A DNA stretch of 64,000 nucleotides, taken from the IMG/VR virus record IMGVR_UViG_3300027908_000023, positions 6,369 through 70,368 of that record; one strand, given 5' to 3'. The translations under genes and the position numbers were made by a program. The notes below the pieces were generated by a model. The model saw only the letters and a list, made by a program, of their open reading frames with translations. It searched no databases and was not told where the DNA came from. Every line of letters starts with the position of its first letter. Positions within the stretch are counted from its first letter, which is position 1. Origin of the DNA: a virus. Shown here in pieces: positions 9,180-49,215 of this stretch.

Positions 9180-9371
9180 CGTCCCTTCCGCTTGCTCTTG
9201 TGGTGGTCCGACTTCGGCCGCCGCGATGCGTTGCATCCCGAGTGCGGCGGGCAGCGGTCGCACTTCAGGTGCCCCAGGCTTTCAGCGACGCGCTTGCGTG
9301 CCGCCTTGACCAGCCTCGATTCTGCGCTGGCTCCCATCTGCCACCGTCCTTTCACCAGGTATACGCGGGCT

Positions 9372-9443
9372 GGCTTTGCAACGGAATGGGCTTTGCAACG
9401 GAATGTCGCCGCGCAACGGAATGCGGCGGGGCGCAACGAAATG
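9372..9443 (+). repeat. subterminal repeats of the transposon left end
   Basis: GGCTTTGCAACGGAATG twice (9372, 9389); GCGCAACG(G/A)AATG at 9411 and 9431. Confidence 0.85.
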
Positions 9444-9463
9444 CGGAAGCCATCCGGTTCACC

Positions 9464-12079
9464 TCAGAAGTGCATGGTAGCGAGATAGCGGTCGAGCATG
9501 TCATCCAGCTTCTTCTTTGCCTGTTCCAGCTGCTCCCTCTTCTCCAGGAACGTTGTGAATCGCTCGGCTGTGGCCTTCTGTGCCTGGACATCAAAACTCC
9601 CATCCGGCTTGACCGGAATCGGCACGGCAAGAACCCTCATCTTCGCCAGGGAGGCGCGGAAAGCCCGGTTGAAACTCGATTCAAAGCGCAGGACATACAG
9701 CGCGTGAAGCATGTATTCCGGGACGATCGCGGGGTCTATGATCTGAATCACCCCGCAATGATCGGTGGTGGCGAAGGGAGTTTCGGGCTGGATCAGTTTG
9801 TAGTTGAAGAGGCTATTGTCGATACTCCAGAGGATGGCAGGATGGCTGAATTCCTCGATATTGCTCTCCTCTACATACCCCATCGGCGCAACGGCATTAG
9901 CGCTGTAGAGCGGAATTTTCGTGTCGTCGTCGGTCACGTCCTTTTTCAAGACTCGCTTGCCGATGAACAGATTGAAGAAATCCTGATCGCTCAGCTTCAC
10001 TTCCCTGGTTGGCCTCTGCCGCAGAGGATTAGCGGATACGAATGATCCGTAATCGGCCAACAGCGTGTTGAATTCGGTCAGCAAGGAAGTTACCTGATCC
10101 GAGTCGGCATATTCGGCAGACTCTTCCGCGCCGGCAGCGATCCGCTCAGCGCGGGTCCACCAGCGATCAACGACCCAATGATCTTCATCTCGAAATCGCT
10201 GGATGTCTTGAATCTTGCATCGTCCCGTCCCGCTTTCAAGCAATTCCTTGGCAGCCGCGCCGACTGCGGAAAAAATCTTGTACCGCCCTTCCATCTCGGG
10301 CAAGTCGTCTTCTTCTATGTCCTCTCTCTTTACACTCCTCAATCGCTCGCCGATGTTCGTGATTAGGTAGGTGAAAACCGGCCGAGTCTGAACGTCGGCA
10401 GCATCCTGCTTCTTGGTCAATGCAAGGATATAGGTATGCTCGTTATTGGCGTAGAAGGTCTTGAGTGGAAGGGTAATGATGGCGTCAAGGTAGCACTCTC
10501 GGAGCATGTGGTTCCGCAGCTTCTTCCCGCCGACCCGTCCGAGGATGCCGTCAGGAACGATGATAAACGCGCGGCCTCCCTGTTTGAGAGACTTGATGAT
10601 CCACTCAACAGACAACCCCTCAAGCCCCAGCGCGTTGATCGGGTATTCGTTCATCGTGCGTGCGGATCGCTTGATCTCCTCCTTGATGATGCTCGACCCA
10701 CGGGTGACATAGGGCGGGTTGCTCAAAATCAGATCGTACTTCTGTTCTTCGTCCTTGATGATATGCCCGAAGGTCCCGAGGTTGTCCTTGAAGAGGGTGA
10801 ACGTCTCGTTGAATGCCCGCGCGAATTCCTGGGAGCATTGTGGGTTGGCGAAGAGGAGTTCTGCCAGATAGATCAGCATGTTCGCCTTGGCGAGGATTAT
10901 GGTCCGCTCCTCATCTCTCTCAAACCCCTTGTCGAATCCGTTCAAGACGAAAGGCGGAGAAATCACGCCACGATTACCGGGCTTATAGCAGGCGTGCATA
11001 CTCTCATTCATGTTGAGTATTTCGAGCGGGAAGCCACCAACCCCGCAATAGGGATCGCAGATCCGCTTGCCGGCGTACTGGAATGTCGGAAGATCGATAC
11101 CGGCCATGCGAATAATCGACTGGATGACCTTGCGAGGCGTGAAATACTGCCCCAATGCCTCAACTTCTTGGTTAAGAAAACTCTCGTAAATCCTCGTTTT
11201 GAACTGCTTGTCGATCTTCGTCAGCCCGCCGAACTCTTCGGCGTACTTATGAAGGTGCTCCAGCGAGCGGCGGAACAAGACGGCTTGAGAGAGATTCGCC
11301 TCGCCGTTCTCGGCGACAAAAATGGTCCCGTTTATGATAGTCGTGCCGTCTTGTGCCGGAGGGAAGAGTTTATAGATCCTCTCCCGCGAGTTCCGCGCAT
11401 AAAAATCAAGGGCATCTTCGGGGTCCGCCACCGCCTTCTGGCGAATGCGGTTGAACGCGATGTCTTCTGGCAGAACCTTCAAGTCGCTCAGAAACTTGAA
11501 GATGAACAACTCGACCACGTTGTACAGGCACTTGACGGGAGATTTCCCGGTCGCCACCCAGATCGTTTGCCATAGCCGGGTCGCCAGCGGCATCGGGTCG
11601 ATAAGTTTCGGTTGCCGAACGGTGGAATTCGTCGCTGTGATCGAGGCGTCTACTTCGTCAAGCAGGTGCTCAAGCGCCGTCGCGTTCTTCACACCGAAGG
11701 CATGAAAGACTGTCCGCAACTCGTTGCCACTGATGTCCCGAATACGCTCGCCGTTCATGGCGTTGATCCAGAACGTCTTCGTGGAATCCGTCACGATGAA
11801 AATCTTCGACAGCGCGCGGGCAACGTCGATTTCTTGAGTGATCGCCTTCTGTATCGCCTTCTCCGAGCCGAGTTCCTTCGGCTGCTTGTACTCGACAACC
11901 GCCTTAATCTTGCCGTGATGGACGACCAGGCCATCGGGCTTCTTGGCCTCAATCTTCGAGTAATCCTTTTTGGGAATGATTCCGGCGTCCTTGAGTTGCC
12001 CGAGGGTGGTGCTGCCCAGCCTGTAGTAGGTGTACTTGCCAAGCTGGAACGGGATGGTCTGAAGCAACTCTTCGCTCAT
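9464..12079 (-). CDS. Type IIG-like fused restriction endonuclease / N6-adenine methyltransferase / specificity protein
   Basis: N-terminal PD..EYK nuclease motif (KPDGL..VVEYK); GQYFTP; DPYCGVGGF (motif I); NPPY (motif IV); C-terminal TRD-like region. Confidence 0.8.
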   Translation of the reverse strand: MSEELLQTIPFQLGKYTYYRLGSTTLGQLKDAGIIPKKDYSKIEAKKPDGLVVHHGKIKAVVEYKQPKELGSEKAIQKAITQEIDVARALSKIFIVTDSTKTFWINAMNGERIRDISGNELRTVFHAFGVKNATALEHLLDEVDASITATNSTVRQPKLIDPMPLATRLWQTIWVATGKSPVKCLYNVVELFIFKFLSDLKVLPEDIAFNRIRQKAVADPEDALDFYARNSRERIYKLFPPAQDGTTIINGTIFVAENGEANLSQAVLFRRSLEHLHKYAEEFGGLTKIDKQFKTRIYESFLNQEVEALGQYFTPRKVIQSIIRMAGIDLPTFQYAGKRICDPYCGVGGFPLEILNMNESMHACYKPGNRGVISPPFVLNGFDKGFERDEERTIILAKANMLIYLAELLFANPQCSQEFARAFNETFTLFKDNLGTFGHIIKDEEQKYDLILSNPPYVTRGSSIIKEEIKRSARTMNEYPINALGLEGLSVEWIIKSLKQGGRAFIIVPDGILGRVGGKKLRNHMLRECYLDAIITLPLKTFYANNEHTYILALTKKQDAADVQTRPVFTYLITNIGERLRSVKREDIEEDDLPEMEGRYKIFSAVGAAAKELLESGTGRCKIQDIQRFRDEDHWVVDRWWTRAERIAAGAEESAEYADSDQVTSLLTEFNTLLADYGSFVSANPLRQRPTREVKLSDQDFFNLFIGKRVLKKDVTDDDTKIPLYSANAVAPMGYVEESNIEEFSHPAILWSIDNSLFNYKLIQPETPFATTDHCGVIQIIDPAIVPEYMLHALYVLRFESSFNRAFRASLAKMRVLAVPIPVKPDGSFDVQAQKATAERFTTFLEKREQLEQAKKKLDDMLDRYLATMHF

Positions 12080-12282
12080 TTGTCATTTCCCCGTTTTTCG
12101 GCATAGTCGTCACGATGCCGTTCCACATATTCCGCCAATGCCGCGTCTATCAGCTGCGCCCGCGTCGGTTTCGGCCGCATCCCCTCGCGGATCGCGTCCA
12201 GCGCGGCTACGGTAACAGGATCAATCCTCGTGTAGATCACGATTTTGGCGTCGGATTGCGGACGCTCCTTTGGCTTGCTCAT
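12076..12282 (-). CDS. ribbon-helix-helix (CopG-like) regulator
   Basis: IVIYTRID..TVAALD..TRAQLIDAAL.EY; its stop overlaps the R-M start codon. Confidence 0.65.
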   Translation of the reverse strand: MSKPKERPQSDAKIVIYTRIDPVTVAALDAIREGMRPKPTRAQLIDAALAEYVERHRDDYAEKRGNDK

Positions 12283-12288
12283 GCCAGC

Positions 12289-12316
12289 AGTGTAAAGGAA
12301 TGTCAAGCGCTGTCAA
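12289..12316 (-). promoter_or_regulatory. sigma70-type promoter, probably leaderless, for the RHH/R-M operon
   Basis: TTGACA-N16-TACACT ending 6 nt before the ATG; a second TTGACA lies in the spacer. Confidence 0.55.
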
Positions 12317-12427
12317 GAAAAAACTCCTGAGAAATCCAACCTACCAACCTGTACGTTTCTTAACGACTCTGTACAATGTAGGCCGCGTTAAGAGACGTTA
12401 AGAAAACACCAGCAACAGGAGCCTATC

Positions 12428-13750
12428 ATGAATGCACGCGAAGAGCGCGGACTGGTCATCGCGGCGGTCTGCAAACTCAACCCCACTCCCGAAGGTTGGC
12501 TTGTCCCCTCGCAGTCCGGCGAGCGCATCTACACGGTCGATGTCAAGAAGCAGACCTGCACTTGCCCGGACCATGAGGCGGGGCACAAGTGCAAGCATAT
12601 CTACGCCGTGGAATTCACCCTCAAGCGCGAGGTAAACAGCGACGGCACGATAACCGACACGAAGAGCATGACCTTCACCGAGAAGGTAACATACCGCCAG
12701 GACTGGCCTGCCTACAATCTCGCGCAGAGCATCGAGAAAGACCGTCTTCAGGAACTCCTGCGCGACCTTTGCCGGGGAATCGAGGAGCCGGCGCACGACG
12801 GCATGGGCCGCAAGCCGCATCTGGTCAAGGATTGCATCTTCGCGATGGTGTTCAAGGTCTATTGCACGCTGAGCAGTCGGCGCTTCTCCAGCGACCTCCG
12901 GGAGGCGCACGCACGCGGGTACGTCAGCAAGGAGATCCCTGGCGTGAAGGTGTGTGCCTTCATGGAGAACGCGGCCTTCACGCCGCTGCTCAAGAGCCTG
13001 ATCTACCAGAGCAGCTTGCCGCTCCGCATCGTCGAGACGAAGTTCAGCATCGACAGCAGCGGTTTCTCGACCAACAAGTTCATGCGCTGGTATGACGAGA
13101 AGTACGGCGTCACCCGGCAGAAACACGCCTGGGTCAAGACGCATATCATGTGCGGGGTCAAGACCAACATCGTGACGGCTGTTCGCATCCTGGACAAGGA
13201 CGCGGGAGACTCTCCGCAGTTCATCCCTCTCTTGAAGGACACCCGCAAGGGTTTCACGATCGGGGAAGTCAGCGCGGACAAGGCATATGCGAGCCTGGAC
13301 AACTTCGAGGCGGTCGCGGAGTGTGGCGGGACTGGCTTCATGGCCTTCAAGAAGGACGCAACGGGTGGCGTGGGCGGCATGTTCGAGAAGATGTTCCACT
13401 ATTTCCAGTTCCGCAAGGACGACTTCCTGAAGCACTACCACCTTCGCTCCAACGTCGAATCCACCTTCAGCATGGTCAAGCGAAAGTTCGGGGACCACGT
13501 TCGCAGTAAGGGCGAAGTCGCAATGACGAACGAGGCACTGTGCAAGTTCGTCTGCCATAATCTCTGCTGTCTGATTCAGGAGCAATGCGAACTCGGCATC
13601 GAGCCGATCTTCTGGACGGACGGGCAATCGGTTAAGCTGGTCGCTGGCGATGGGGAGGCTGCGTTGCCGGCGCGGCTGGCGTTGCCCGCGCCGAAAAAGC
13701 CGGACCCGCCGCCGCCCCCGTCGTTCGGGAATGTGATCTATGTCGGTTGA
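12428..13750 (+). CDS. DDE transposase (IS5/IS903-like) with N-terminal SWIM zinc finger
   Basis: CTCPD..CKH (SWIM); IDSSG, SADKAY, RSNVESTFSMVKRKFG catalytic motifs. Confidence 0.9.
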   Translation: MNAREERGLVIAAVCKLNPTPEGWLVPSQSGERIYTVDVKKQTCTCPDHEAGHKCKHIYAVEFTLKREVNSDGTITDTKSMTFTEKVTYRQDWPAYNLAQSIEKDRLQELLRDLCRGIEEPAHDGMGRKPHLVKDCIFAMVFKVYCTLSSRRFSSDLREAHARGYVSKEIPGVKVCAFMENAAFTPLLKSLIYQSSLPLRIVETKFSIDSSGFSTNKFMRWYDEKYGVTRQKHAWVKTHIMCGVKTNIVTAVRILDKDAGDSPQFIPLLKDTRKGFTIGEVSADKAYASLDNFEAVAECGGTGFMAFKKDATGGVGGMFEKMFHYFQFRKDDFLKHYHLRSNVESTFSMVKRKFGDHVRSKGEVAMTNEALCKFVCHNLCCLIQEQCELGIEPIFWTDGQSVKLVAGDGEAALPARLALPAPKKPDPPPPPSFGNVIYVG

Positions 13751-13768
13751 AACGGAACTTGTTGCGGC

Positions 13769-13804
13769 GCAACGGAATATGTTGATTTTGGCATATTCCG
13801 TTGC
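13769..13804. repeat. 13-bp perfect inverted repeat at the transposon right end
   Basis: GCAACGGAATATG / CATATTCCGTTGC. Confidence 0.85.
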
Positions 13805-13848
13805 AAAGCCACGCGGGCTGGACACCGTTCTTGACACGAAAAAGAAAA

Positions 13849-13919
13849 ACAAGCCGGCGGGGGTCGAACCCGCATCCGCTCACTTAGAGTCAGCGGATAA
13901 ACCCAGACGCTTCGGCCGT
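13849..13919 (-). ncRNA. degenerate tRNA-like RNA with a CUA anticodon loop
   Basis: T-arm GCGGG-TTCGACC-CCCGC; loop CTCTAAG on a long stem; only 5 acceptor pairs; no CCA; followed by a U-run. Confidence 0.5.
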
Positions 13920-13988
13920 GGCAGGCGGCCATCGCCCAGGAGAACCGCGATAGGCGGTTCGCCCTTCCTCTGCCAGTCGCTCATGATT

Positions 13989-14208
13989 TGGAGATCGCAC
14001 GGGGCGTCGAACCCCTCAGCTCAGGTTACCATCACGGCCAGCCTTCGTGCCCCCAGGTGCCCCTGGGGGGTTGCGAGAGGCATCGCAAGCCTCTCTGGCC
14101 GACCGTTACTCTACCCTCACCTAGCCGGCTGGCGCGGATGCGATTCCGCTTTTAGCCGGCGGGAACCTTGCGGGTTCCCACCCATCCACGCATGGGCATG
14201 ATGCGACC
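13989..14208 (-). ncRNA. 220-nt tRNA-Cys-like RNA (8/4 fold, anticodon GCA, U73, CCA) with a 145-nt variable-arm domain
   Basis: Acceptor GGTCGCAT/GTGCGATC followed by T-CCA; D-stem GCCCAT/ATGGGT; anticodon stem GGGAAC/GTTCCC with loop CCGCAAG; T-arm GGGG-TTCGACG-CCCC; promoter motif at 14243-14270. Confidence 0.75.
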
Positions 14209-14286
14209 GTTTGTTTCCTCCGGGCGATTGCTCCTACCTTAGTTATTCGCTGCTCACGAGCGAATCTTTGGGCGATGGTTGTTTTT

Positions 14287-14670: not shown

Positions 14671-15035
14671 GATTTGCTCCTCTGGTTGCTGGTCTTGGCC
14701 TCTGTAGAGTAGTTCGCTGGCCGGGAGTCTCCATTTGATCAGCCAGCGAATTTCCTCAACACCAGTGCCCACACTTTCCGCACTTCGGCACCATGAGAGA
14801 CAGCAGAGAATAGTCATGGCTGCCGCATCGCGAACAGGTGAACGGTGAAGGTATCTCCTCCACTTCGACACGGTATTGCCCGGCAAGCTGCCGCGCCAGG
14901 TCGCGATCAACGGCGACGCGCCGGCCTTGATCGCGACTCCACATCGGCTCGCCCTCGTAATCCTTGCCGGCGTACCAAATCCGTCCCTCGGGAAATTCCC
15001 GCCAGACATAGTATCGGTCCATAGCCTGGCCTCCA

Positions 15036-46570: not shown

Positions 46571-46825
46571 TTAATCTTCGCTCGGCAGGGTCGCTTCGGC
46601 GCGCTGCCAGATCGCCAGCGCGACGGCGTTCTGTGGCCGGTTCAGGTCTTTGCGGTCCTGGCAATCATAAAGCGCCATGCGCAATACAGACTCTTCGGTT
46701 TGTAGCACTGGAGTGTTTGCGTTGAAGTACGGAGCGTTAAGGATCAAGGTCGCCTGCGCCTGAAATGCTGGCGTCATCACCAGATCCGGGTCGGCCGGGA
46801 AATGGTTGCCGGTTGAATTATTCAT
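46571..46825 (-). CDS. hypothetical protein
   Basis: ATGA overlap with the portal stop. Confidence 0.6.
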   Translation of the reverse strand: MNNSTGNHFPADPDLVMTPAFQAQATLILNAPYFNANTPVLQTEESVLRMALYDCQDRKDLNRPQNAVALAIWQRAEATLPSED

Positions 46826-49215
46826 TGAGATTCCCCGTCGCGGCGCTCCATCGATCCGCCATCTGGGAACCCAGGCTCACCGTGCGCCTGGCCGTTCGCC
46901 GGCTGAATCCCATCAGGCAGCGCCGGTTGCGTCACGGCAAAAGGCAGTGATGACGGCAGTTCTCCATTAAGGCGTTTCTCGATAATCTCCGGGATGCTGA
47001 CCGGCTGCTCTGGTGCCTGCGCCGGTTGGCTGTCTGACTCTGGTGCCTTGGCCGGTTGCTCTTTTGTCTCCAGCGGCAAGCTATGCTTCACCTTGTCGCG
47101 ATTCGAGAAGATCACCCGCCGGACCGCGAGACTCTCCCCCTCCAGCCCGGATGGTCCAACATATTTTTCCGCCGTGCCGGCGCGCAAATAGCCAAGCGTG
47201 ATATGCGGCGCATAGCGATCCTGTGTCTGTACGTGCGGCAGATGATCCGCCAGGTAGGCATGGAGCGCATGCAGATCGTCTCCGCCAACGTCCACCTTCA
47301 CGACTTCACCATCACCAGTATCCGGGAAGATGGAGATACTTCCGAGCGTGAAGCTGATCGGACCAACGCCCAGAACCGTCTTGCGCACCACGTCAACGTC
47401 GTCATCGATCAAGCCATGAAGCACCGTCAGGTGATAGTCCGATCCCGCTTGTCGGCCCTTGTCGGCCAGTTCCTCATCGGGCAGCGCATCACTGAGGAGT
47501 TTGAGCTTGGAGGCTAACGGCTCACCGATGGGTAGCATTAGGCAGCCATAGCGTTTCTTGCGCTCCTCGGCCAGTTGCTTGGCTCTTTCGGGCAGTGTGA
47601 GTGTAACGCCCTGGCTCCAACTCCTGATGGGCTTGGCCTCTGGCGGCAACCACTTGAGCGGCATCGGTTGCGACGGCGAAGAGATCGGCGTGCCAGGACC
47701 ACCACCACCCGGATGGCCACCCGGTTCTGGTGGCATGCCGGGCAGCGCCGCGCCGGGTCCGACCGGCGAACCAATCGCTGATGGAGCGCCAGGCCCAGCA
47801 GCAGCCATCGGCGCGCCCGGACCACCACCACCCGGTTGCGGCGGTTGCTCTTTCATGAGTTTCGAGTAGAGTTTCTTTTCCTCTTCACTCATGGGTTCGT
47901 TGTCGAACTCGACTCTCGCTTCATCATCAGTGAGCAAACCATATTTGAACTGCTGCTCCCTGTCAGCGCGCCGCTGTTCCGGCGAGCTATCCACCGGGTT
48001 GGGCCACCATACCCTGAGTCTTTCATCCCAGAGTGTTGCTACTTTGGTTGTCACAACCGCGCCGATGTACTGGAGCTTTGGCTTGATACACTGTTCGTGG
48101 AACTGTGTCAGTGGCCCCCACATCGCTATCTGACTGCCGGCATCCTGAAGACCCGCTATCTGTTTTGGCACTCTGAAAGTGGCCAGAATGGAGTCTCTGA
48201 GTTGATCGAAACTGCCCGTGAAATCACACTCGCTGGGCATGATCTTGAGCGGCGTGAACTTGGACCCAGATGAGAGCAAGAGCGGTTTGCCGTGGTTAAA
48301 TTCTCCCTGGAACCTGGCATAGAACTTCTCATAGTAGCGCTCCAGCACGTCATCCGATGGGTCCTGATTGCCCTCCGGCATCTCGATCACGCCCAACGGT
48401 GCCAGGACGTTCTTCATGCTCCAGAATCGCGATTGGTCGATGCTCTCGCCAACATCGATCCACTCGCTGATAGCCCGTTGAGGGCTCCAACCGCCGATCT
48501 TGGAGAGCGGGCTCGGCAACTGGAAATAGACGATCTGTTCCCACGGGATAAAGAGCGTGCCGGCGCTGGTTGGGAAGGGCCGAACCACTACTTGCAGGAT
48601 GTCGTTCTGCCCGGTCTGAATCCAACACCAATGAGAGGGCACGGTCCAGAGTTCTGAGATTTGCCCCGTGTGCGGATCGGGAATCATCCACCAGAACGCT
48701 TCTCCAGACAGGCAAAGGAACTGTATCGTCTGTGCCAGGATGTCTGAGAAGCCCGCCGTGTCCCAGGTGTTTGGGCGCTTGAAGAGCCGCATCAGCGGAT
48801 GGTTCGGCGGGACGTGCGTTACCTTCTCGTGTGGCTTGATCGTGTTGTTGGTCTTGACGTAGCGCCTGATGCGCATCGCCTTATGAATCTTCGATCCGTG
48901 ATTCAGCGAATTGCCGTCGTGCTCGACCCAGGCAACCTCGGGCTCTCTTCCCCGGATGTCATCCATGATGGCGTTGACCGCAACATAGGTCCAGTGCTTG
49001 AAGTGCTGCGGAAACTCAAGCCGCTCCCGCGACCACATGCCGGGCCAGCCCCAGCCACCCGTGGCACTGGCGAGGATGCGCGAGAAGAAGGATTCTCCAA
49101 CGCTGGTTTTTGGCCGGTTGCTGGCGCGGCTGGTGATCTGGCGCTGGTGACGCCACTGGTTGGCAGCACGGCCGGCGCGTTCGACGAGAGACAGCGTGGT
49201 ATCGAGGAAGCCCAT
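46822..49215 (-). CDS. phage portal protein fused to a C-terminal 2H phosphoesterase domain
   Basis: Lies downstream of terL; portal-like motifs (LSGEAFW, GWSP, IAGL); Pro/Gly linker; HLT and HIT motifs. Confidence 0.8.
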   Translation of the reverse strand: MGFLDTTLSLVERAGRAANQWRHQRQITSRASNRPKTSVGESFFSRILASATGGWGWPGMWSRERLEFPQHFKHWTYVAVNAIMDDIRGREPEVAWVEHDGNSLNHGSKIHKAMRIRRYVKTNNTIKPHEKVTHVPPNHPLMRLFKRPNTWDTAGFSDILAQTIQFLCLSGEAFWWMIPDPHTGQISELWTVPSHWCWIQTGQNDILQVVVRPFPTSAGTLFIPWEQIVYFQLPSPLSKIGGWSPQRAISEWIDVGESIDQSRFWSMKNVLAPLGVIEMPEGNQDPSDDVLERYYEKFYARFQGEFNHGKPLLLSSGSKFTPLKIMPSECDFTGSFDQLRDSILATFRVPKQIAGLQDAGSQIAMWGPLTQFHEQCIKPKLQYIGAVVTTKVATLWDERLRVWWPNPVDSSPEQRRADREQQFKYGLLTDDEARVEFDNEPMSEEEKKLYSKLMKEQPPQPGGGGPGAPMAAAGPGAPSAIGSPVGPGAALPGMPPEPGGHPGGGGPGTPISSPSQPMPLKWLPPEAKPIRSWSQGVTLTLPERAKQLAEERKKRYGCLMLPIGEPLASKLKLLSDALPDEELADKGRQAGSDYHLTVLHGLIDDDVDVVRKTVLGVGPISFTLGSISIFPDTGDGEVVKVDVGGDDLHALHAYLADHLPHVQTQDRYAPHITLGYLRAGTAEKYVGPSGLEGESLAVRRVIFSNRDKVKHSLPLETKEQPAKAPESDSQPAQAPEQPVSIPEIIEKRLNGELPSSLPFAVTQPALPDGIQPANGQAHGEPGFPDGGSMERRDGESQ

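Follow-up and report, generated by a model that had tools for sequence, protein, structure and literature searches.

A tRNA-shaped RNA candidate with a predicted 145-nt variable-region domain in the genome of a soil phage

We have analysed a 64,000-nucleotide (nt) stretch of DNA (hereafter, the window), which corresponds to bases 6369-70368 of a 98.5-kb linear virus record in IMG/VR (IMGVR_UViG_3300027908_000023; estimated completeness 82%) and encodes a terminase and a portal protein. In the early, small-gene part of this phage genome, the minus strand carries a 220-nt sequence shaped like a transfer RNA (tRNA), which we have termed RNA1. Its acceptor stem, D arm, anticodon-like arm and T arm are accompanied by an extra domain of 145 nt (14160-14016) at the position of the variable loop. 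A weaker tRNA-like element, RNA2, lies downstream, and an IS903-like transposon (insertion sequence, IS) is located beyond both. All features and their coordinates are collected in Table 1. The closest relatives of the IS transposase (68-71% identity) are found in metagenome-assembled genomes (MAGs) of Planctomycetota and Gemmataceae, for which reason a planctomycete host for this soil phage is a reasonable guess, though only a guess. Identical copies of the locus occur in a 132.6-kb scaffold of the European Nucleotide Archive (ENA; 132,578 bp) and in soil contigs of the Joint Genome Institute (JGI). The ENA scaffold, which stems from the same phage, exceeds the IMG/VR record by ~34 kb, so that the true phage genome is larger than the record searched here.

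Table 1. Features of the RNA1 locus in window coordinates.
Feature	Positions	Strand	Description	Basis
Promoter-like motif copy	14242-14271	-	-35-like CCAAAG (14271-14266), 15-nt spacer, GCGAATAAC (14250-14242)	Repeated-motif match
Putative 5′ leader	14209-14236	-	~27 nt; would be the ribonuclease P substrate in the favoured reading	Position of the -10-like box
RNA1	13989-14208	-	220-nt tRNA-shaped RNA	Fold, z-score, pair probabilities, composite-motif chance test
RNA1 acceptor, 5′ strand	14201-14208	-	8 nt, pairs with 14000-13993	Pair probabilities 0.82-1.00
RNA1 D arm	14180-14197	-	6-bp stem, loop GCGUGG with GG dinucleotide	RNAfold, pair probabilities
RNA1 anticodon-like arm	14161-14179	-	6-bp stem, loop CCGCAAG (C33)	RNAfold, pair probabilities
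RNA1 hairpin A	14124-14160	-	7 bp, internal loop, 5 bp; apical loop AUCGCA (14144-14139)	RNAfold, pair probabilities
RNA1 arm B	14017-14123	-	Irregular helix leading to a three-way junction with hairpins B1 and B2	RNAfold, pair probabilities
Hairpin B1 loop	14082-14088	-	UUGCGAU	RNAfold
RNA1 T arm	14001-14015	-	4-bp GGGG/CCCC stem, canonical 7-nt loop UUCGACG	RNAfold, chance test
RNA1 3′ end	13989-14000	-	Acceptor 3′ strand (14000-13993), discriminator U (13992), encoded CCA (13991-13989)	Sequence
Spacer	13920-13988	-	69 nt, two small hairpins; probably co-transcribed	Fold; no terminator upstream of RNA2
RNA2	13849-13919	-	Weaker tRNA-like element, loop CUCUAAG (CUA); good T arm, poor acceptor and D arm	ARAGORN, relaxed threshold
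Terminator-like site	13839-13873	-	RNA2 T-arm hairpin (13873-13857) and U-run (13852-13839)	Terminator scan
IS903-like transposon	9363-13819	.	Context, outside the RNA unit	Target duplication, terminal inverted repeats

A preliminary description of the locus had placed an RNA of this kind at 14208-13989 on the minus strand, and its coordinates and sequence are exactly as written there. Unconstrained folding of RNA1 with RNAfold recovers every helix described here; the acceptor, D, anticodon and T stems and the two extra helices of the earlier proposal are all present in the minimum-free-energy structure. The free energy of this structure is -122.6 kcal/mol, as compared to -95.4 ± 5.3 kcal/mol in 200 dinucleotide shuffles (z = -5.18), none of which (0/200) folds as well. 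Pair probabilities amount to 0.82-1.00 in the acceptor, D, anticodon, A, mid-B, B1, B2 and T helices and are lower, 0.37-0.85, at the irregular basal part of arm B. The RNAfold prediction and its z-score bear out the proposed 8/4 body (i.e., 8 bp in the acceptor and 4 bp in the T stem) with a large, independently folded 145-nt domain for a variable arm.

RNA1 exhibits a number of canonical tRNA features: the T loop UUCGACG fits the consensus UUCRANN, the D loop includes GG, the acceptor and T stems provide a stack of 8 + 4 bp, and the terminal UCCA is encoded. Two of the acceptor pairs are wobbles (G2-U and U8-G). Since A193 lies opposite G209 (RNA1 numbering), a 7/5 fold is excluded, and the only arrangement with 12 bp is the 8/4 split. 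Other canonical features fail, namely recognition by covariance or heuristic models and an anticodon loop of 7 nt with U33 and with positions 32 and 38 unpaired. The extra domain consists of hairpin A (49-85 in RNA1 numbering) and arm B (86-192), followed by one unpaired A and then the T stem. The basal helix of arm B is long and purine-rich, with purine-purine mismatches, and hairpin B2 has 8 bp and a GGCA tetraloop. All 6 nt of AUCGCA, the apical loop of hairpin A, can pair with UGCGAU in the loop of B1 (chance 0.009 by loop shuffling), and this perfect match suggests a loop-loop kissing contact between the two hairpins. The UUGCG of the same B1 loop is also complementary, over 5 nt, to CGCAA in the anticodon-like loop, and alternative states may thus exist.

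We have further scanned for a composite motif in which a 4-bp stem capped by a TTCRANN loop precedes 8 nt, N and CCA, and a fully paired 8-mer is located 60-400 nt upstream. The real 98.5-kb genome includes one T-arm site of this kind. The same composite appears in 2% of 200 first-order Markov-simulated genomes, a figure in which the D and anticodon-like arms are not counted.

A phage-specific repeated motif, TTAAAT-N15-GCGAATAAC(C)ATACAGAGA, occurs in ~24 copies in the window, exclusively on the minus strand. Every copy precedes a ribosome-binding site (RBS) and a start codon by 30-45 nt (e.g., the minus-strand sites at 14717, 15862, 18446, 29118, 31710 and 40718), and the motif looks like the early promoter class of the phage. 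In the copy found ~33 nt upstream of RNA1, the downstream box GCGAATAAC is perfect. A generic sigma-70 scan yielded no promoter match ahead of RNA1. The promoter that had been proposed at ~14243 is a promoter-like copy of the phage-specific repeated motif and not a match to the sigma-70 consensus. As the GCGAATAAC box ends at 14242, we infer that transcription starts ~27 nt ahead of G14208. Downstream, the terminator scan detected no terminator between RNA1 and RNA2, while a terminator-like hairpin with a U-run is located ~140 nt beyond RNA1. An open reading frame (ORF) of 153 amino acids (aa) overlaps RNA1 on the plus strand; it has no Pfam match, and its GC content is flat across the codon positions. 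Gene callers placed no gene on RNA1 in two independent assemblies. Taken together, the ORF, gene-caller and motif evidence supports the placement of RNA1 in a non-coding gap, behind a promoter-like motif and ahead of a terminator.

RNA1 matches no Rfam family. ARAGORN reports 0 genes there at its default threshold. The window as a whole is without an Rfam 15 match at gathering score, as are segments of 701 nt and 228 nt at E ≤ 10, a negative outcome which covers tRNA, tRNA-Sec, transfer-messenger RNA (tmRNA), introns and ribozymes. When the insert is deleted in silico, ARAGORN returns only a mis-registered 7/5 fold, at the relaxed threshold only. In the literature searched, no natural tRNA came up whose variable region is as large as that of RNA1. 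These searches, of which the preliminary description had proposed those with ARAGORN and Rfam, agree with its statement that no described class resembles this RNA: there is neither an Rfam family nor a description in the literature searched.

We have sought relatives by pattern scans, with two patterns in both IMG/VR and the JGI metagenomes and two more in IMG/VR only. An exact 27-mer and loops-only spaced and irregular-helix two-strand patterns retrieved identical copies only. The T arm followed by N8 and TCCA gave six matches in IMG/VR, none of them a relative; three are ordinary tRNA-Gly and the other three, judged by eye, look antisense to a gene start. A blastn search of 50,697 phage records returned only a 35-nt T-arm match, for RNA2. 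A covariance model (CM) built from the single RNA1 sequence gave no convincing match, either in 24 distantly related viral records or in 453 genomes (151 each of Gemmataceae, Planctomycetota and Acidobacteriota). The preliminary description had named a lack of covarying homologues as a finding that would tell against it, and no homologue of any kind was found, only identical copies. The lack of homologues reflects the rarity of this phage in the databases and is not evidence against function.

One acidobacterial CM match (genome G341, L134:1501-1635, minus strand; 20.5 bits, E = 0.05 per genome) is a 135-nt GC-clamped element. Its first hairpin, GCCCAU-GAGUGU-AUGGGU with AAU before it, is a near-copy of the RNA1 D arm, and a T arm is absent. 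We have rejected it as a relative of RNA1, since only the D-arm-like hairpin is in common, probably by chance. The CM also matched, through hairpins B1-B2, a ~105-nt palindromic repeat in one Planctomycetota MAG (G025, L050-L084). This intergenic repeat is present in at least 42 copies with 82-91% identity and is reminiscent of repetitive extragenic palindromes or miniature inverted-repeat transposable elements; two of its copies have no match in Rfam at E ≤ 0.1. A profile hidden Markov model (HMM) of 32 repeat copies does not match RNA1 (best regional E values, 6.6 and 25), and the insert was thus rejected as a planctomycete repeat. We searched the phage record for cysteinyl-tRNA synthetase (CysRS), a CCA-adding enzyme, RtcB and a tyrosine integrase and found none of them. 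RNA1 was also dismissed as an attP-type tRNA fragment, given that the record has no tyrosine integrase and that both acceptor strands are present.

The preliminary description considered the RNA an aminoacylatable tRNA-Cys. Such a reading would draw only on G1-C72, U73 and the GCA triplet, which are the main identity elements for CysRS (PMC5389517). The proposed anticodon arm, with its 6-bp stem and the loop CCGCAAG, is present, as is the C at position 33 in place of U, about which a caveat had been made. The open 7-nt loop did not hold: C32 and G38 form a seventh, Watson-Crick pair (C36-G42 in RNA1 numbering; probability 0.96), by which the loop shrinks to five bases. On account of C33, the closing C32-G38 pair and the tight six-helix junction, ordinary decoding by a molecule folded as predicted is unlikely. 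In two Planctomycetota MAGs, tRNA-Cys is called as a canonical 73-nt class I gene of the 7/5 type. The tRNA-Cys of the MAG that carries the closest transposase is unrelated to RNA1 in sequence and lacks an encoded CCA, having G1-C72 and U73 in common with it. For the genomes examined, derivation of RNA1 from a planctomycete tRNA-Cys, which is unrelated and 7/5, is ruled out. In the Gemmataceae MAG G026, we noted copies of the tRNA-Cys 3′ half (anticodon loop to acceptor) without a 5′ half, at L107:1370-1440 and L109:1470-1545. ARAGORN calls no tRNA at either place, and elements that insert into tRNA-Cys probably left them behind as attachment-site scars. A tmRNA-like tag in RNA1 was considered and rejected: the GCA-to-UAG open frame of 16 codons falls within helices and is not significant, a stop-free run of this length having a chance of ~0.46.

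Tentatively, and with somewhat less than an even chance of being right, we favour the reading of RNA1 as an early-transcribed phage tRNA mimic or scaffold, with a body of the 8/4 allo-tRNA type, tRNA-type processing and a functional extra domain. The 8-bp acceptor would be stacked on the 4-bp T stem to give 12 bp, as in 8/4 allo-tRNAs, and the T loop and the GG of the D loop would be able to form the tRNA elbow. Host ribonuclease P (RNase P) would cut off the ~27-nt leader, and 3′ trimming would halt at the encoded UCCA end, yielding a stable tRNA-like molecule that could possibly be charged. The variable region would have grown into a 145-nt domain with two arms, hairpin A and the three-way-junction arm B, probably locked by the 6-bp kiss between the A and B1 loops. 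With C33 and the closing C32-G38 pair, RNA1 would probably not decode. The tRNA body would provide processing, stability and access to tRNA-binding proteins, while the extra domain would be the working part, which would bind a protein of the host or the phage and might, for instance, titrate a tRNA-directed enzyme or a defence nuclease early in infection. A more elaborate proposal, which we regard as a long shot, is a cysteine-chargeable 8/4 tRNA body fused to a 145-nt sensor or adaptor. The B1 loop (UGC) could have two alternative partners, the GCA of hairpin A and that of the anticodon-like loop, and the tRNA would thereby mask itself and be switched to regulate its charging, sequestration or delivery.

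Several observations weigh against the mimic or scaffold reading. RNA1 is a single sequence without a homologue, and hence no covariation supports any of its helices. The upstream box of its promoter copy (CCAAAG) is weak. The six-helix junction is nearly devoid of unpaired linkers (3, 0, 0, 0, 1, 0; four nt in all), so that a true L-shape is not assured. The locus is contained in two soil metagenome DNA runs, with no RNA run among the runs listed. Neither a partner protein nor a target came to light, and the genes around RNA1 are without known function or Pfam match. As evidence, RNA1 is weak, being a lone sequence for which no relative was found.

The natural tRNAs most comparable to RNA1 are the allo-tRNAs. 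E. coli can process and use those of the 8/4 and 9/3 types, and certain irregular forms with five stems are untranslated (PMC5389517); 8/4 tRNAs have been described in phages, along with soil polycistrons of irregular or suppressor-like tRNAs and an association with transposons (Mukai et al. 2017, PMC5389517). RNA1 resembles 8/4 allo-tRNAs and selC* tRNA-Cys in the 12-bp acceptor branch split 8/4, in its enlarged variable region and, in part, in its long D and anticodon stems (both 6 bp, with a D loop of 6 nt), and selC* tRNA-Cys also in the combination of U73 with GCA, albeit in a loop of abnormal geometry. It further shares with allo-tRNAs the soil origin, the carriage by a phage, a nonsense-suppressor-like polycistron partner and a transposon nearby, and some members of the allo-tRNA set have five-stem junctions and are untranslated (PMC5389517). 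Whereas allo-tRNAs have a single variable-arm (V-arm) hairpin and a D tetraloop, RNA1 has two arms with a three-way junction in its 145-nt region and a D loop of 6 nt. RNA1 also differs by C33 and a closable anticodon loop, by the absence of a selB*/cysS* context (there is no CysRS domain in the phage record, and the neighbours have no Pfam match) and in being missed by the tRNA-Sec covariance model. Of the likeness to selC* and allo-tRNAs advanced in the preliminary description, the 8/4 body and U73 with GCA stand. RNA1 does not have a V-arm of one hairpin, U33 or a Sec context and goes unrecognised by the tRNA-Sec model, and for this reason we do not file it as a member of these classes.

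By analogy, the closest functional counterpart of RNA1 is the engineered tRNA with an aptamer at the V-arm, a position that tolerates cargo (PMC7590224). In both RNA1 and the V-Spinach/allo-tRNA chassis (Mukai 2020, PMC7590224), a folded module sits on a tRNA body at the variable-arm position, and the engineered modules are able to recruit, or be sequestered by, proteins (PMC7590224). These are synthetic, short hairpins of ~20-50 nt, whereas the module of RNA1 is natural, measures 145 nt and has its own predicted tertiary contact. In tmRNA, the body reportedly exits from the tRNA-like domain at the position of a long variable arm. Topologically, the two would have in common the acceptor, the T arm and the CCA, as well as a large body located where a class II variable arm projects. 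Unlike tmRNA, RNA1 keeps its D and anticodon arms, has G2-U71 and not G3-U70, lacks pseudoknots and a single-stranded tag frame, and is ~220 nt as opposed to ~360 nt long. The tmRNA models of ARAGORN and Rfam find no match on RNA1.

RNA1 could also be a working cysteine-accepting tRNA, i.e., a selC*-like 8/4 tRNA-Cys charged by the host CysRS and used for translation or for non-ribosomal aminoacyl transfer. The identity elements for CysRS (PMC5389517), of which the planctomycete tRNA-Cys examined shares G1-C72 and U73, would fit such a role, as would the 8/4 body and the 6-bp D and anticodon stems of the selC*-like type. Phage genes include ~2% Cys codons, and allo-tRNAs with an aptamer-tipped V-arm remain active in E. 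coli (PMC7590224). The latter point has its counterpart in the only marginal activity of engineered V-Spinach tRNAs (PMC7590224), and the variable region of RNA1 is several-fold longer than the variable arms described in the literature searched. C33 replaces a near-universal U33 in a loop that C32-G38 closes (0.96), CysRS, the CCA-adding enzyme and RtcB were not found in the phage record, there is no sequence likeness to the tRNA-Cys of the planctomycete MAG examined, and the tRNA and tRNA-Sec models do not match at E ≤ 10; we consider a working tRNA-Cys unlikely. That neither ARAGORN nor Rfam recognises a tRNA would be expected if RNA1 were a structured phage non-coding RNA, or the 5′ part of a ~370-nt transcript, with a partial and incidental tRNA likeness, acting as a small RNA that pairs with other nucleic acids or binds proteins, without tRNA-type processing. 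The rearrangement around the T arm upon addition of leader and trailer points in the same direction, and so does the lack of the usual tRNA core linkers in the tight six-way junction. The co-occurrence of a canonical T loop, a D-loop GG, a 12-bp stack and N-CCA argues against an incidental likeness (composite chance ~0.02 before the D and anticodon arms), as does the fact that RNA2, in the same transcription unit, is also tRNA-like, and this explanation, too, seems unlikely to us.

The IS just downstream indicates that the locus receives mobile DNA, and the CM match of B1-B2 to the multi-copy ~105-nt palindromic repeat of the Planctomycetota MAG raises the possibility that RNA1 is an 8/4 phage tRNA gene broken by a small structured mobile or repeat element, a decaying pseudogene in which C33 is possibly a decay mutation. 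However, the repeat's profile HMM does not match RNA1, no second copy of the insert exists in the phage or in ~450 genomes, and no target duplication is visible at 14160/14016. Removal of the insert leaves a variable loop of 1 nt, all helices are intact, and two of the insert loops are complementary to each other. An interrupted gene is therefore quite unlikely. It is very improbable that RNA1 is a pre-tRNA interrupted at a non-canonical position by a sequence which would be removed by splicing or by an RNase III-type activity, the latter leaving a two-piece tRNA. The long helix of arm B could be the substrate of a double-strand RNase, but Rfam has no group I/II intron or ribozyme model that matches, and RtcB was not found in the phage record. 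Moreover, the insert is positioned between the anticodon and T arms and not in the anticodon loop, where bacterial tRNA introns are located, and no usable variable loop would remain after excision. The probability left over by the favoured reading and these four explanations belongs to chance or to something unconsidered.

RNA2 is called by ARAGORN as a tRNA(CUA) at the relaxed threshold only, not at the default one. The blastn match in its 3′ half (91% identity) is to two Methanoculleus viruses. RNA2 could be a weak suppressor, the remnant of a tRNA 3′ half, or just a terminator. Directly upstream of the unit that holds RNA1 and RNA2, an ORF at 14670-14287 (minus strand), with its own motif copy (14717) and an RBS, contains an in-frame TAG at 14571-14569 and is protein-like for 93 further codons. 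TAG terminates ~11% of the confident minus-strand ORFs, which means that there is no wholesale recoding. Among 5.8 billion proteins, the 175-aa neighbour protein has two homologues, both encoded on short contigs without RNA1, and the 127-aa (TAG read through) and 155-aa neighbours have none. The IS903-like transposon is flanked by a 9-bp target duplication, ACGCGGGCT, at 9363-9371 and 13811-13819. It has perfect terminal inverted repeats of 16-17 nt and encodes a SWIM-DDE transposase and, as cargo, an 871-aa N6-methyltransferase (Eco57I-like). Since the target duplication is located directly beyond the terminator-like site, the IS landed beside the RNA unit, not inside it. Elsewhere in the window, the portal protein (46822-49215, minus strand) has an additional C-terminal segment (residues 590-679) with a weak RNA-ligase/2H-type match (phrog_755, E = 1.2e-4).

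If RNA1 is transcribed and processed as proposed in the mimic or scaffold reading, it would be the largest elaboration of a natural tRNA variable arm found, and one built on the rare 8/4 body, to date known from allo-tRNAs. Phages would then use the tRNA frame as a carrier of large folded RNA modules, a design at which synthetic biologists arrived independently. The fusion of a chargeable tRNA with a sensor or adaptor, if it were true, would be a living form whose structure lies between class II tRNAs and tmRNA.

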